Shown: positions 50,845-58,443, counted from the first letter of the whole stretch. The stretch is DNA of 63,668 nt, filler included, from Chrysochromulina tobinii (GCA_001275005.1; 8 parts of 8 records of this genome joined end to end with filler, not necessarily neighbours in it); one strand, 5' to 3'. Notes: generated by a model not told the origin, from the sequence alone. Translations and numbers: made by a program.

Positions 50845-51515
50845 GGAATCCTCAATCATTATATACCCATAGGCTAAGATACCCGTCACAGATATCCCCA
50901 CAGCCCGACCGGTGCGGCAGCACTATCGATATAGGCCCAAAATGGGAAACTATGCCAACTATTCTTTGCTTCAGTTCAGTTCAGTTTCTTCGCGGTCCCC
51001 CCACGCTCACTCCACCGTCTCGACGGACGGCTCCTTTGCAATAGTACAGTACTATACACAGTAGTCTTGCTTTTTTCAATTTCACCCAGCATGGCGCTAA
51101 GAACAGTCGCTAGTAGAGCCACCATCGCCAATTAACTGCTCAATCATGAATCAACAATCATGGTTGCCCCCCCTTTCATCAGACATCACCCTCTCGCTCC
51201 CTTGTGTGCATGCTTGTGTGCAAGGGCCCTCTAGACAAGCACGCGCCACTGCCGAAGGTCGACGTCGAGGTTGTCGTTCGCCACTACTCGGATATATCGG
51301 GCCATCTACACGGGTACGGGGTAGCATGAGACATGATATGTTGTGTGAGCAGGGGAGATGAGGAAGAGGGGAGGATCGTGTTTGTTCTTGCCCGCGTCGA
51401 AAGCTTTGCTCCTCGGCATACGGTTCGGCATAATGGTGTATTCGAGCAAAGCAAGCGCGCACGCAAGTGGAGTGAGTCGCGCGCGCTGGCGACCATTGCA
51501 CGCGCGCGCGTCCCG

Positions 51516-51594
51516 TCTGGGAGACCGACATCTCATCTGGGAGACCGACGTGTCATCTGGGAGACCGACATCTCATCTGGGAGACCGACATCTC
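51516..51594. repeat. 20-bp tandem repeat (TCTGGGAGACCGACATCTCA)x4 just downstream of the LOX stop
   Basis: Four near-perfect units with no spacers. Confidence 0.9.
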
Positions 51595-51630
51595 GTCCCA
51601 CACATCACGCTGGTGCGCGTCGCGAGCACT

Positions 51631-54600
51631 TCAGATGGATACAGACGTCTCGAGAATGCGCGGGTTGAACGCAACAAATTCGTGACCCGTGGCGCCGCGG
51701 CGCACGTTGCGCTCGTCGATTGCTTTCGCTAGCGCCTCGAGGGCCACCTGGAAGCCTCTCACCTGATGCAGGAGGCAATCAGAGGCAATCAGTGATCATC
51801 AGTGGCAGTCGATTAGAATCAAAGCTTCATAAGGCCTATGGAAACGTCTCACCGCGTCGAGCACGCCTTGCTGCTTGCGCGCCGTCTCCCATTCGTTCAC
51901 GCTAAAGAGGTGTGAATACTCGTCCATCAGAGGCGGCTGGCGGACGCCTGTGTCGAGATGGCAATGAGGGGTGCAATCAGTGCTGCCATTGGTTGCTATC
52001 AGGCAGCCAGCAATCCATCAGTGGTCCATCAGAGGCGGCTAGACGCATGCCTGTGAGCGCGATGATGACGAGCGCCTGGGCGTGCGATTGGACATCCGGT
52101 TCGACCGTGCCGTTGGCGAGCTTTGGCGCCAAGCCGACAGGCGAGGTCAGGTATTCCACTATGCTGCCGACGAGCTCGTGGCGCCCCGTCACGCTGAAGA
52201 TGAGCTCGGTCACCTGCGGAGGCCATCACAAATTTGCTCTTGGAGTCAGAGGCAATCCAGCGCCAATCAGATGGGCTATCAAGTGACCATCAGCGGTTCG
52301 AGAGGAGCTCGGCCGTTACCAAGGTGACGAGCGAGCTGAGGCCGAGTGGAGGCAGCCGCCATGGCGTATCGAACTGCACCTCAAACGACGCCCAAAAGGC
52401 ACGCAGCTCATCGTCGGCATGCACTGCAGCATCGTCGGGGAAGAAGGGCACGAGGAACGCGCGCACGTAGGCCCCGATCGCATTCCACAGCGCGAGGCCG
52501 TCGACCGCCAACGGCCAGTGCGCGACGAAGGCATCGGGTAGGCCGGCCGCGGCGATCCGCTCGGGAAAGGGCACGTACCTGATCAGGGAGGCACTCAGAT
52601 GTCATCATAAGGTCGCCTTACGGTCGTCAGTGGCCATCAGTGGCCATCAGAGGCCATCAGAGAGGTCATCTGTGGCCATCAGTGGCCACCAGTGACCATC
52701 AGTGGCCATCAGTTCGGCTCGCGGACTGGAACGTACGTCCACTCGCGGGCCATGTCCGCAAAGTAAGTGGTCCACGACTCAGCGGTGAGAGCAAAGGTGC
52801 GATGGGCAAAGCCGCCGACAGGCATGAGTAGGTCCATGGATGCGGAATTGATCTTAGCGGCCCCATAGTAGTGGGGCTTGAGCAGACGTCGCAGCGGATG
52901 CGTCGGCGAGAGCGTCGTGCGTGCGGCACAGTCGAGGCCATTCGAGAGGATCCAATGCGTGTGCAACAGATGATCACGCAAGGTGAGCGACGCGCCGAGA
53001 GTGGCCTTGAACAGAGCCTTTGCATGCCCCCACAGCGCGTCCGACGGTGTGAAGAGCTTCGAGTGTGAAGAGCTCCACACGCCGAGAAGGGGCGGCATGC
53101 TGCCATCGGCCGGCACCGTACCGAGGTACGCGCTCGCGCCGTATCGGCACCACGTCGAGCGCACAGCGTACCTGGACATGTACTCAATGTTGCATTCAAA
53201 CGCGGACTCCGGCGGTACGTCGTGGCCCGCTGCCGCAGCCGAGCGCGCCGCCTTTAGGTACCAACTGCCAACGCCGACAATGCACAACTCGGCGATGCCC
53301 GCGTCCGTATCAAGATCATCCCACGTCTTGTACTGCTGGGGCAGGTACTTGCCAAAGACAGCCTCGATCGAAGCGTACGCCTCGGCGCGGCTTGCTGCCG
53401 ACGTCGATCTGCCATCACCCCCTTCACCCCAATACGTGAGTTTCTCAAGCGCCTCGTCCTTTTCGAAGCTCAGTGTGGTCGAAAATGCAAACAGGGCCTC
53501 TCGCGCCCATTCCTGATTAAGGAGGCAATCAGTGGTCCTCAGTGGTCCTCAGTGACGATCGGTGGTCATCATCAGTGACGTGCCCACACCTTGAGCCATG
53601 CGGGCGTTGATGAAGGAGGCAATCAGAGGTCCTCAGTGGCCATCATCAGTGACGTGCCCACACCTTGAGCCATGCGGGCGTTGATGAAGGAGGCAATCAG
53701 AGGTCCTCAGTGGCCATCATCAGTGACGTGCCCACACCTTGAGCCATGCGGGCGTTGATGAAGGAGGCAATCAGTGGTCCCCAGTGGCCATCATCAGTGA
53801 CGTGCCCACACCTTGAGCCATGCGGGCGGCTGGTCCTCATCCCGAGAGATGATCTTGATTCCTCCAAAGGGCATGTGGATCCACTCGTCCGCGTAGTCCT
53901 GCTTGGGCAGCAGCTCGGCCGTAATCTTATCCGAAGTGCCCACCGTGGTTGGATCGACCACTTTCTGCACCGCCCAGATCATGAGCTGTGTGTTCTCATT
54001 CGTAGACGTGTAGAACTTGTTCGTGCGCTCCTCAGCACTGCGCTCGCTCCGCAGCCACGCGTCGGCTCGTGCAAGCTCGCGGCCGTTGAGCGTGTCCGTC
54101 ATCTGCTGCAGCTCAAAGGGCGTTGAGTTGAAGTAGGTGACCTTGATCTCCTCGGGAGGCATCGCAGGTGTGGAGCTGCCGCCTTTGCTGCCCTTGGGAG
54201 CGGATCTGTGCGCTGACCAGAGGCGCTTCACGCCACCGTACGGCGTGGCGGCGCGCACAAAGGCGCGCAGGAAGGCAAAGATGGTCTGCAAGCCAAACTC
54301 TTTGCCGGGGCACGCGTGCGAGCCAGGGCTCGCGAGGTCCGGGGCGAGCGCAAAGTCCGCGAAGTTCACACCGAGCCGATGGTAATCGGCGACGCTTCGA
54401 AGCTTGAAGTATCTGATGAGGGTGCAATCAGCATGCACTCAGTGCTCCTCAGGCGCAATCAGCATGCACTCAGTGCTCCTCAGGCGCAATCAGCATGCAC
54501 TTAGTGCTCCTCAGGCGCAATCAGCATGCACTTAGTGCTCCTCAGGCGCAATCAGCATGGCCTCCAGCAGCAATCTCTGTGGCCACGGCAGCGCGTTCTC

Positions 54601-57136
54601 GACGCATCGGGCGCCATCAGTGGCAATCAGCGTGGCCATCAGTGGCAATCAGCGTGGCCATCAGTGGCAATCAGCGTGGCGAGTGTGTACTCGGCGTCAT
54701 CGCCCCAGACGGCGGGATCACGTGACGCCTGCATCAAGTTGAGCATGACGCAGCGCGGTGGGCGGTTGCCATCCGAGCGCTCGAAAAAGGGTAGAATGAA
54801 CACCGGCGAGAAGAGCCGAATGATTTCGAGTACGTACCTGATGAGGCACGCGATCAGAGGTCGTCACTGGCCATCGGTGGCCCTCAAAAAACCACCCGTG
54901 TCCATCTGTGGCCATGATCAAGCCATGATCAGGCCACAATAAGGTCATCATCGAGTGATACGCGGCCACCAGTGGCCGTCCGTGGAAGGCAACGTACGGT
55001 TCGATGTCCTTCGGCTGGTCGAGCGAGAAACCCTGTGGCAGGTGCCGTTCTCCCCAGGCAGAGTACGGGATGGCGAGGGCGTACCTGATTAGGGGCAATT
55101 AGAGGCAATCAGAGGTCATCAGAGGTCATCAGAGCTCATTAGGGAGGAGGGCGAGGGCGTTCCAAATTAGGGTGGAGGGCGAGGGCGTACGCGATGACGT
55201 TGGGCACCGAGATGCCGCCCGCGAAGAGGAGCGCGTCCATGAGCATGCTCGCCAGTTGTGTCACCTTGGCCGGCCCAAGCGTGCGCATCTCGTCCGGCGA
55301 GATCTTGTGCAGCGCTGCCTCATACCGTGTGAGCCACGAGGCCTTCTCTTCAAGTGTCTTGTCGACGCCGAGCGTGGCGCGCAGCACAGGCATGGCCGAG
55401 GATGGCACACTGAACGCGACGAGGATCTGTGACTGGAGCTTCGCAAACGTGAGCGCCTCTGCGTCCGTCAGCTGGATCCCGAGCATCACCTGAGGACGGA
55501 GGCGATCAGTGGCAATCAGTGGCAATCGGTGGCAATTTGTGACTGTCACCGGTCATCAGTGGCAATCAGATCCCATTCGCGAAAGTCAGCGGTCATCAGT
55601 GGCAATCAGTGGCAATCAGTTACTGTCAGCGGTCATCAGTAGCAATCAGTGACCAGTAGCTGGATGCCAAGCATCACCTCGTGCTGCAGCTGGCACACGA
55701 ACATCTTCGTGTCGGCGCCGACGCGCAGTGTGCGACGTCCGGCGAGGAAGGCGGCGGCGCGCGCCTCAAGCCATGCCAAGCCACCAAGGGCATCGAGGCA
55801 AGACGGGCCACACAGCCTGACGAAAATTGGACGTGGTCATCAGCGGTCATCAGCGGTCATCAGTGGTCATCAGTGCTCATCAGTGCTCATCAGTGCTCAT
55901 CAGTGCTCATCAGTGCTCATCAGTTGCCACACGCCTGACGAGAATTGGACGTGCCCACGCGTGCGTCTCCGTCGGCGCGGAGAGTGCGATGCCGTGCCAT
56001 GGTACCTCGGGCCACATGTGCTCATTCAACGCCATCACCCCCAGAAAGTTGTGGCGCTCGGCGGTGCCGTCGTGGTCGTTAGTGCCGAGCTTGTGTCCGA
56101 GAGCTCGCAGCTGGCTGACCACCTGATGAGGCACGCCATCGGAGGTCGTCAGGTGCAATCATGTGCAATCATGTGCACTCAGATCTGATGAGTTCGCAGT
56201 TGGCAGACCACCTCACGATGAGAGCAGTAGGTGATGCAGTCCTCGACGAAGGGACCTTGCCACTCCCACCGCTCATTGGAACGGCTGAGCACGTACCTGA
56301 TGAGCGACGCACTCAGCGCTCATCAGTGGCAATCAGTGCTGGACACTCCCACCGCTCACGGGAACGGCTGGAGACGCTGTGAATGTGAACGGCTGGAGAC
56401 GCTGTGAATGTGAACGGCTGGAGACGCACTTGGACGCCGCGTCATCACCAGGTTTGGGCTCCTGGTTCCAAGCGACCGCGAGGGCCGCGACGTTGCGGTA
56501 GTACAGCGCCCCACCGGCCTGCTCGTTGAACCAGCCACTCAGCTTGGAGGTGAGCCAGCCCAGCGGCGCCAGCAGGCTCGCACCGAGGCCACGCTCCGCT
56601 GCGGCAGCCTTCTCCTCCTCGTCGCGCAGCTCTGCCTCGAGCGCCGTGGTGAGCTCCGCGAGCAGCGCTGCCGACACGCGGGCGCCGGCCATGATAGTGA
56701 GGCTGCCTTGCGCCGGTGCGCGCATCGGGTACTCGCGGCGCTCGTCCTCGTGCTCCCGCAGCGCCGCCAACGGCACCATGCACTCACCCATGAAGTCATC
56801 ACTCGACAGGTCATCCTTGTCAAACACGCGGCAATGCAGCTCCCAGTCGGCGCCAGGAGGCGGAGCAGCGAAGCGGAAGGCGAAGTTCCAGGTCGGGGAC
56901 ACGGTGTTCCAACACGTGTCAGAGACACGCTCCGTCTCGCGCGCCTTGGCGCTCCACGCTGCGCCCACTGGCCCCAGCCGAATGATGACAAACGGGTCGG
57001 CAGGGCCCATGATGTCCACGTCCCGGCTGAGCTTCTGAGCCTTCTCGATGAGGATCGCATGGGGTGTGGCTTCTCTCACAGGGGCTTGATGCTCCGCGCC
57101 TTCCGCCGGTGCTCGTGATGAAGCGCCGCAACCCAT
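51631..57136 (-). CDS. C2 domain - CYP74-like cytochrome P450 - lipoxygenase fusion protein (13 exons, 1225 aa)
   Basis: Exons 57136-56430, 56296-56212, 56122-55935, 55816-55678, 55489-55191, 55084-54998, 54837-54691, 54412-53812, 53512-52737, 52578-52320, 52213-52051, 51947-51853, 51762-51631 sum to 3678 nt with no internal stop. N-terminus MGCGAS. C2: ADPFV, SPTWN, VFDKDDLSSDDFMG. P450: LLFAGGISV, LEIIR, RDPAVWG, SHACPGKE. LOX: WGHAK, DHLLHTHW, HPLRRLLKPH, DGLALWNAI, DDELRAFW, IFSVTGRHELVG, IDERN, C-terminal SVSI. Confidence 0.9.
53513..53811 (-). repeat. Intron built from a 74-bp tandem unit that includes the exon end and GT donor
   Basis: CCTTGAGCCATGCGGGCG recurs at 53589, 53663, 53737 and 53811. 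Confidence 0.95.
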
Positions 57137-58443
57137 TGCTGCCCTTCGACTTTCTTGTGTCCATGCCATCCCTGTGTCCATGCCATTCAGTATGCCATGT
57201 TGCCATTCGGTCCTGCGTGCGCGCATCCCGCTTGTGTGCATGCCATGAGCACACGCGCATGGAGAGAGTGCATGCGCGCATGGAGAGAGTGCACGCGCGC
57301 GCAGAGAGCTGCAGACGTTGGCGAGTGCGGAGCGACGACTGGCGGCTGACGAGGCGAGCGTGAGCTGAGCTGAACGGCGTGAGGGAGAGGGTTATCGGAC
57401 TGCGCCTTCATTGCGCTGCAGCACGGGCCCTCTCACTTGCGCTGGTCATCTCGACGAGCGTGACGCGGCGCCAGCCGACCTCGAGCACCTCGGCCGACAT
57501 CACGTTAGGATCTCTCCGAGCTCAACGCGGACAAGTACTAGAAGCGCGCGCATGAGAGCCTCGGCGTCGTCCAGAAGCGAGCAGGTGCGCCCACCGTCGG
57601 CGCGGCGGTTCGGGGGCGTGGGGAGCTCTACGAACTGGATACCGTGGCGGGTGATGGCGGGGCTCGGGACGCGTCGGCGGGCGAGGTCCGATCCAGCGAG
57701 TGCAGCCGACGAGGGGCCGGTCCCTTGTGTGCTGCCGTTGGTGTAGGTGACCTGACGCACAGGCCGCGCTGCAACACCACTGTTGACTACGAGAACTTCT
57801 TGGCCGACGACAGGCTGGGCCCGCGAGCGGGCTTTCAGACCACGCGGCCAGCCAGGCGCCTATCCCCTCTTTCTCTCCCTCAGTCCCCCCATCTTATGCT
57901 CGACGCCACGGTCGAACTCGAGCCGATTTCCTCTTCGGCGTAAGAGTGGCGCTCATCGGCTCGAGATCGGCCCGTTACTTCTCACCTACTTCTTCTCCGA
58001 GGGCACGTATGTCAGCATCTATGACGTGTCACCTCATTATGGACCCCCCTCCGTCATCTCCGCCCACTCCCGTCCTCCCCTGCTGGCTTCCGGAGCACAT
58101 TCGATAGGCTTCCGTATGGTTGTCTGTAATTTATGTATAGACTTGACTTGACTTGACGTTAGCAACTATTCATATGGAAAGGTTAACACGGAGCTGATAC
58201 ACGTATGTGAAATCATCAAACTAATCATTGTTACATGTACAATGTACCCAGAATCCTGAAACCCGGATTCCAGACGCCCACGATCTGCCCCAGGATGCGA
58301 TTTGGCAGCGTCCACGTCGACGAACACGCAAGCGTGCGTGCGGCGGCCGAAGATCCGTCCGAACGCGGCACTAGTGTGTGTAGAGTATCGCACGGCCCGA
58401 TGTCGTTTCAGTAACGTACGGTAGGGACCGGTAGGGTTTTGTG

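Follow-up and report, generated by a model that had tools for sequence, protein, structure and literature searches.

The window studied here (the whole 63,668-nt stretch, joined from parts of the Chrysochromulina tobinii genome, GCA_001275005.1) carries at 51631..57136, on the minus strand, a gene whose spliced product combines in a single chain of 1225 amino acids (aa) an N-terminal C2 domain, a domain predicted to fold as a cytochrome P450, very divergent in sequence, and a C-terminal lipoxygenase (LOX). The P450-LOX join recurs in other protists. From its sequence we consider it fairly probable that the protein is a self-contained oxylipin synthase, in which the LOX would make a hydroperoxide and the P450 would convert it without NADPH or a reductase. 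The P450 substrate is predicted to be a LOX product; the strongest evidence for this is that relatives of this P450 are paired with three LOX lineages, namely the LOX of cyanobacterial operons, a clade of 22 LOXs with Gly at the fifth iron-ligand position, and the PLAT-LOX of protein P0079. The principle of such a coupling is known; the combination of domains is new, the P450 family uncharacterised and the LOX clade divergent.

Gene structure and transcription

The window is made of unrelated fragments joined by seven spacers (15690-58543), each consisting of 44 N, TTAATTAATTAA and 44 N, and neighbours across the spacers are for that reason without synteny information. The gene sits alone on fragment 50845-58443, where no second clear gene was seen. 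On the minus strand, its 13 exons are joined by removal of 12 introns into a frame of 3678 nt, which codes for 1225 aa and a single terminal stop. This confirms the stop-free chain of the original prediction, whose landmarks (the P450 motif LEIIR, the haem Cys codon at 54310-54312, the LOX motifs HLLHTH and HELVG, and the terminal Ile) were all found in place, as was the open frame that it traced from the haem Cys into the LOX exon through a phase-0 intron. The introns are 89-299 nt long; ten have GT-AG borders and two, introns 3 and 11, GC-AG borders. In style they may be likened to the introns of haptophytes. A GT donor for intron 3 was ruled out because it breaks the frame, which the GC donor at 55934 restores. 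In-frame Met codons further upstream were set aside as start sites; the MGCG start agrees with the homologues. The GC content at third codon positions is 0.69-0.84 over the entire frame, and all 12 exon junctions are free of gaps at the junction in the alignment to two full-length homologues (see below).

The stretch is present wholly or partly in 17 public runs, six of which are RNA from freshwater samples. RNA contigs from four runs of three studies were placed on 51200-55850, a region that spans introns 4-12. The organisms behind these contigs are closely related to the source strain; of the 32 coding differences listed, 22 are silent and none creates a stop. Eight of the nine introns in the region covered (4, 5, 6, 8, 9, 10, 11 and 12) are skipped exactly. 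Intron 8 (53513..53811; 299 nt, phase 0) is the P450-to-LOX joint and is skipped in runs X12, X13 and X15, that is in three of the four runs and in two studies; transcription extends across the joint rather than ending between the two parts. In X12, a spliced contig of 1986 nt extends from 54286, which is 24 nt beyond the codon of the haem Cys, to 51545 and covers the LOX in full. It is overlapped by an X13 contig (54154-54412) that includes the haem Cys codon. The segment 51342..51630 is a probable 3′ untranslated region, with RNA contigs at 51342-51545 joined to the coding contig at 51545.

The fusion might be an artefact of gene modelling, arising from two adjacent genes or from P450 transcripts that stop short of the LOX. 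Stand-alone C2-P450 proteins do exist (for instance P0005 of Alexandrium catenella), intron 7 was seen unspliced, and the RNA was placed on introns 4-12 only. However, the frame is free of stops from the Cys to the donor of intron 8, the splicing of this intron recurs in 3/4 runs, and there are full-length collinear homologues, which makes an artefact extremely unlikely.

Homologues and spread of the fusion

Searches with the LOX exon identified two database proteins with the full C2-P450-LOX order, P0001 (1229 aa) and P0002 (1232 aa), whose middle domain is 56-58% and whose LOX is 55-62% identical to that of the spliced protein. A HMMER search with the middle domain of P0002 retrieved 367 proteins at E<=0.001, and the detailed family work drew on the best 150 of these matches. 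The family alignment holds 95 near-complete P450 domains out of 153 proteins with a match, fragments having been dropped. Among 49 long relatives, Pfam detects a LOX in 19 at E<=0.01, 15 of them above the cut-off. Our own profiles identified 22 database proteins in which a family P450 precedes a LOX long enough to include the His ligands. The single chain of C2, P450 and LOX first proposed from the sequence thus has full-length collinear homologues, and the architecture search yields the 22 P450-LOX proteins in addition. Several fusions lie on contigs that barely exceed their coding sequence (for example 3285 nt for a protein of 1064 aa and 3703 nt for one of 1204 aa). Fusions that bear an organism name, among 20 clusters, come from Chrysophaeum taylorii (annotated as "lipoxygenase domain-containing") and Rhynchopus euleeides; P0005 of Alexandrium catenella is a C2-P450 without LOX. 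The first of these organisms is a pelagophyte, the second a diplonemid and the third a dinoflagellate, lineages distant from one another.

The LOX domains of the fusions are ~20-57% identical, and over 19 fusions their identities rise and fall with those of the P450 domains (rho 0.65, p 0.0002). That the fused P450s form one clade was rejected by the approximately unbiased (AU) test (p 4e-53), with 11 changes between the fused and unfused states; the test used 50 rows, comprising all 19 fused sequences, every third of the 76 unfused ones and 5 cyanobacterial ones. Since the "unfused" sequences include truncated gene models, one old fusion followed by many splits and repeated fusion are both possible.

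Other domain arrangements were observed around the same P450 family. P0079 (1064 aa) has a family P450 with a PLAT-LOX that carries the usual Asn ligand, and seems to have arisen by a second fusion event independent of the other. P0031 (1814 aa) joins in a single chain the P450, a ~185-aa orphan known from cyanobacteria (see below) and a LOX, and P0042 (887 aa) combines the P450 with a fibronectin type II domain and the orphan. A family P450 is followed by a C-terminal C2 domain in P0059 and by a C-terminal ricin-type lectin domain in P0108. Word-based protein searches, which are insensitive, gave none of 1508 candidates with exon 8 and two of 7989 with an alignment. Pattern scans gave 0 of 44 in bacterial genomes and four weak loci in metagenomes, and plasmids gave only weak P450 and LOX matches.

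The N-terminus and C2 domain

Exon 1 (56430..57136) encodes the MGCGAS start, the C2 domain (aa ~26-150; Pfam C2 E 2.9e-14) and a helical spacer after it. Five loop aspartates are the pattern of Ca2+-binding C2 domains and are found here as Asp41, Asp47, Asp106, Asp108 and Asp114. Of the 32 relatives whose C2 is N-terminal (this protein included), 18 begin with Met-Gly, in many cases MGCG, database starts being choices of the gene callers. The C2 is detectable in 10 of 23 P450-LOX fusions. From these residues we infer that Gly2/Cys3 would be acylated and that the protein would be recruited by Ca2+.

The P450 domain

Of the three Pfam domains expected in the spliced parts, C2 and Lipoxygenase were found whereas p450 (PF00067) was not. 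The p450 model matches none of the 13 exons, neither of the two full-length homologues and none of the 49 long relatives, and a NCBIfam search on 11 proteins gave nothing close to the cut-off. When the profile of the 95 relatives was compared to solved structures, P450s occupied 60/60 of the best 60 among 286 matches (top E 6.5e-8). The predicted model of homologue P0002 (aa 207-660, 56% identical; predicted local distance difference test (pLDDT) 96.1, predicted template modelling score (pTM) 0.94) matches P450 structures with a Foldseek probability of 1.0, and its best Z is 28.1 (root-mean-square deviation 3.2, 348 residues aligned). The Atlas feature score to P450 clusters is 0.97. Cys585 (codon 54312-54310), Glu506, Arg509 and Arg322 are each invariant in the 95 relatives. 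Judged by the homologue model, the middle domain is a cytochrome P450 fold, as first proposed, with the haem-thiolate residues predicted.

The domain begins with exon 2 (56212..56296), which encodes its N-terminal part and is collinear with P0001 and P0002. Exon 3 (55935..56122; GC donor) carries the helix-C motif H318xxxR322, with His in 89/95 and Arg in 95/95 relatives. It is followed by exon 4 (55678..55816), exon 5 (55191..55489) with the I helix DALLFA463GGIS467VP, and exon 6 (54998..55084). The introns numbered after these last three exons are spliced in the RNA, introns 4 and 5 in 3/4 runs each and intron 6 in 2/4. Exon 7 (54691..54837) encodes the K-helix E506xxR509, both of whose named residues are present in 95/95 relatives. 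Exon 8 (53812..54412) contains the Cys loop F568-C585, the L helix and the last P450 strands (to aa ~654); its remainder would form a linker and the start of the LOX-associated helices, as read from the homologue model and the open frame.

The I helix of the family follows the pattern D-A/S-L-L-F-A-G-G-x-S-V-P. In the register given by alignment to bacterial P450s, the acid-alcohol pair is not intact: it reads Ile466-Ser467 in this protein, and an acid precedes the alcohol in one of the 95 relatives. The Thr position is occupied by Ser in 82 and by Thr in three of them. Pfam searches of the exons and the full homologues detected no reductase domain in the chain. These features bear on whether the domain is an ordinary monooxygenase, further oxidising LOX products or precursors with electrons from a separate reductase or ferredoxin. 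The alcohol residue retained at the Thr position would fit such an enzyme, and so would the solved folds nearest to the P0002 model, which are ordinary bacterial monooxygenases; but these structural matches are generic (9-18% identity), 94/95 relatives have no acid in the pair, and a redox partner is neither fused to the chain nor recognised in the cyanobacterial units. We regard a reductase-dependent enzyme as quite unlikely.

In ordinary P450s the aromatic residue and the Cys of the haem loop are 7 residues apart. The distance is 17 in the present protein, 16-18 in 76/95 relatives (range 10-28) and ~9 in the cyanobacterial relatives; the family loop is thus about ten residues longer. The Cys motif of the 1225-aa protein reads HxCxG, with its His present in 27/95 relatives; HxCxG is described for P450s fused to fungal dioxygenases (DOX; PMC13049297). 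It could point to a P450 that takes oxygen from the hydroperoxide by heterolytic cleavage and adds it, as a hydroxyl or epoxide, to the same fatty acid or a different one, in the manner of fungal linoleate diol synthases (LDS) and peroxygenases. The conserved I-helix Ser (82/95) and the presence of CYP152 peroxygenases among the profile matches would agree with this use. However, the motif's His is kept in just that minority of relatives, and the CYP152 matches are weak (E ~1e-5) and do not stand above those of ordinary bacterial P450s. Furthermore, LDS and epoxyalcohol synthases (EAS) are described with an Asn in substrate recognition site 4 (SRS4; PMC13049297) that is absent here. Oxygen donation of this kind is considered unlikely.

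The same Asn bears on the label "CYP74-like" attached to the domain in the original prediction, which was not borne out: the residue is absent, and no CYP74 is among the matches listed. The SRS4 of plant allene oxide synthase (AOS) is given as FATcFN321TwGGMKI, with Asn321 (PMC13049297). No Asn occurs within aa 459-467 of the present protein, and any Asn there is found in 2/95 relatives; Asn470 falls after the I-helix motif and is not conserved. Kinship is still compatible with the finding that no CYP74 or AOS entry is present in the best 60 of the 286 profile matches or in the Foldseek matches listed. None is present either in the best 50 of each of two Z-scored structure searches, one of which has 96 chains at Z>=8. 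CYP74s are reported to have a nine-residue insertion in the haem-binding loop (PMC10813956). The insert estimated here from the aromatic-to-Cys distance is of similar length; it varies within the family, the cyanobacterial relatives having a short one. The splitting of O-O bonds without that Asn is described for fungal AOS and for thromboxane synthase (PMC13049297), and its absence therefore weakens membership of CYP74 more than a CYP74-like function. By sequence the domain probably belongs to a separate P450 family overlooked by Pfam, and it may work like a CYP74.

The lipoxygenase domain

The LOX is encoded by exons 9 to 13, the first two of which match Pfam Lipoxygenase above cut-off. Exon 9 (52737..53512; E 1.8e-8) carries His932, His937 and Ser976, and is followed by exon 10 (52320..52578; E 7.5e-10); introns 9 and 10 are spliced in the RNA. 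Exon 11 (52051..52213; GC donor) contains His1108 and Gly1112, exon 12 (51853..51947) is flanked by introns 11 and 12, spliced in 2/4 RNA runs, and exon 13 (51631..51762) ends with ETSVSI and the stop. Ile1225 is the predicted iron carboxylate ligand, and the ends of the homologues are similar. The predicted model of P0001 aa 151-1229 (pLDDT 89.6, pTM 0.78) matches LOX structures with a Foldseek E of 2e-15. The pTM of 0.78 for these two domains hints at a docking of P450 and LOX.

The His ligands of the iron are kept in 23/23 (His932), 22/23 (His937) and 22/23 (His1108) fusion chains and align to His residues of a Pseudomonas LOX; one relative, P0117, has a LOX without two of them. The usual fifth ligand of LOXs is Asn, His or Ser. 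Its position here is Gly1112, which aligns to the Asn of HAAVN, and Gly is found in 22/23 chains. The 22 Gly-type LOXs form a single clade (support 100/100), apart from the cyanobacterial LOXs and that of P0079, in a tree where long branches meet at the point of separation, as the tool warned. From the alignments, the Gly marks a divergent clade, and its presence alone need not mean an inactive enzyme. Ser976, at the Coffa site, aligns with the Ala after INEG in Pseudomonas 15S-LOX. A Gly/Ala switch at the Coffa site is reported to set the stereochemistry (PMC13319228). Because this switch governs stereochemistry and a Ser occupies the site here, the product is predicted to have the S configuration.

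One of the two domains could be non-catalytic, the Gly-ligand LOX being inactive or lipid-binding, or the P450 only binding or detoxifying hydroperoxides. The Gly found in nearly all chains, the P0117 LOX that lacks two His and the low Pfam scores of the LOX are in line with this explanation. Yet the LOX domains, although only ~20-57% identical, retain the three His and a terminal Ile/Val, and all core residues of the P450 are invariant. We find a catalytically silent domain very unlikely. With its three His and C-terminal Ile, the LOX is likely a dioxygenase, an activity predicted from sequence.

Cyanobacterial LOX-P450 loci

The protist P450 profile matches 11 of 401 genomes in a sample of the cyanobacterial phylum at E<=1e-10 (best 6e-32), and 3 of 5 genomes preselected for carrying a LOX. 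In 12 of 13 loci the gene immediately before the P450, on the same strand, is a LOX, as it is in 9 of 10 loci from the genomes not preselected for LOX. In five genomes, all six family P450s are within 5 kb of a LOX, as against none of 55 other P450 matches. An orphan gene of ~185 aa follows the P450 in 13/13 loci; the orphan was not detected in the 1225-aa protein. No redox partner was recognised in these three-gene units, whose flanking genes are unannotated. The cyanobacterial family P450s do match Pfam p450 (3/3) and likewise have no I-helix acid. Two loci depart from the simple order: L081:6137-8918 has two tandem family P450s behind a single LOX, and in L087:5832-7182 the P450 is split over two frames.

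The cyanobacterial unit is like the protist fusion in its homologous P450, with which it shares N-terminal blocks, and in having a LOX next door. It differs in that the genes are separate, the LOX belongs to another lineage with an Asn ligand, and the Cys loop is short.

Proposed function

In the proposed mechanism, acylation at Gly2/Cys3 together with the five C2 aspartates would bring the protein to the membrane upon a rise in Ca2+. The LOX, with three His, the terminal Ile and a water replacing the fifth ligand, would then form a hydroperoxide, probably S, from a polyunsaturated fatty acid. The P450, devoid of the acid of the acid-alcohol pair, would bind this hydroperoxide at its ferric haem and split the O-O bond. 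The products would most likely be an epoxy alcohol or an allene oxide, less likely aldehydes, and the tether between the domains would keep the unstable intermediate local. The oxylipin product would likely serve signalling or defence.

Several observations weigh against the self-contained synthase. At the level of the protein, the Gly at the fifth-ligand position is one of them, and the Ser at the I-helix Thr position keeps half of the pair used for O2 activation. The predicted models are those of homologues 56-62% identical rather than of the 1225-aa protein itself. At the level of the family, the chain contains no LOX in 76 of 95 P450s, some of which are surely truncated, and the fusion is therefore optional; in the cyanobacterial locus L089:5745-7725 the P450 and orphan have no LOX within ~6 kb (13.5 kb examined). 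At the level of RNA, splicing of intron 7 is not among the 15 of 37 joints listed, the interior of this intron carries unspliced contigs in X12, X13 and X14, and no contig among those listed covers the entire gene; the assembled contigs fall short of proving one transcript.

More broadly, the family may represent a third design of oxylipin synthase, in which a CYP74-independent P450, invisible to Pfam in eukaryotes, was recruited to LOX at least three times and now gives undescribed plankton oxylipins upon a Ca2+ trigger. The three recruitments meant are the cyanobacterial operons, the Gly-ligand LOX clade fused in several protist lineages and the PLAT-LOX fusion. We give this wider proposal slightly less than an even chance. 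If true, it may supply hydroperoxide conversion where CYP74s have not been found. Oxylipins of algae influence both grazing and signalling. In diatoms and Symbiodiniaceae, the enzymes that follow LOX are described as unidentified (PMC10864609, PMC13440314), and a single chain with defined ligands makes the question of the oxylipin product directly testable.

Intron repeats

In many introns of the gene (51763-56429) the first bases nearly duplicate those of the following exon; in six introns, 12-16 of 18 bases are identical. Matches between intron start and next-exon start amount to 116 in total; unrelated pairs have 5.4 each on average (p 1e-5 by permutation). In intron 3, 18 of 20 bases upstream of its own donor are repeated instead. 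The pattern suggests, from the sequence, intron gain by local duplication. For introners of Chrysochromulina only 4-bp duplications are described (PMC9860276). Intron 8 (53513-53811) contains a ~73-nt unit, made up in part of the end of exon 8 and its donor, that is repeated in tandem about four times, and intron 7 (54413-54690) has tandem units of ~39 nt and ~19 nt. A common repeat of the GATGACCACT/GATTGCCACT type is found in intron interiors and is matched by many unrelated RNA contigs.

Comparison with known systems

The fusion types mentioned in the literature that discusses them are catalase-LOX and dioxygenase-P450 (PMC13049297, PMC13440314, PMC12586643, PMC10864609, PMC10813956, PMC13319228, PMC11719350, PMC5712309, PMC11507377, PMC9860276). 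No P450-LOX fusion was found in the portions of the literature searched, subscription journals, P450 nomenclature lists and supplements being outside this scope, which accords with the initial statement that none was known. The fusion is no one-off, with 22 database proteins annotated at best as "lipoxygenase domain-containing"; this spread, like the Gly at the fifth-ligand position, was not noted in the original prediction. Its P450 belongs to a eukaryotic family of several hundred sequences (367) that Pfam missed in 49/49 of those scanned. The proposed working mode resembles that of CYP74, coral AOS-LOX and fungal DOX-CYP enzymes, without implying membership of any of these groups.

The CYP74 family and clan and CYP5164 (AOS, hydroperoxide lyase, divinyl ether synthase, EAS and hydroperoxide bicyclase) are like the present P450 in their post-LOX role, here predicted, in the lengthened haem loop and in having no intact acid-alcohol pair. 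They differ in the SRS4 Asn that is missing here, the loop insert of the present family varies in length, and CYP74s stand without LOX fusion in the literature portions searched. Fungal DOX-P450 fusions (LDS/Ppo, DOX-AOS and DOX-EAS) have a self-sufficient P450, as is proposed here, fused to a hydroperoxide maker, and share HxCxG. In the present protein the P450 comes first, its partner is a LOX instead of a haem dioxygenase, and SRS4 reads AGGxSVP rather than NQxQ or (T/I)QxQ; no haem dioxygenase or peroxidase domain was found, Pfam giving C2 and Lipoxygenase only and the partner folding as a LOX in the homologue model.

Fusions of a catalase-like AOS with a LOX are described (PMC11719350, PMC11507377), and are found in corals (Plexaura, Gersemia) and cyanobacteria (Acaryochloris, Anabaena). 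They have the same layout of an N-terminal haem enzyme and a C-terminal non-haem-iron LOX, which in both systems has to retain a free terminal Ile. The LOX matches include coral AOS-LOX chains, with alignment limited to the LOX part. Unlike these, the haem domain of the present protein is predicted to be a thiolate P450 and not a catalase, the N-terminus has a true C2 and a predicted acylation site, and the fifth-ligand position holds Gly; Pfam detects no PLAT in the LOX of the 1225-aa protein. The union of P450 and LOX is the missing combination beside catalase with LOX and haem dioxygenase with P450.

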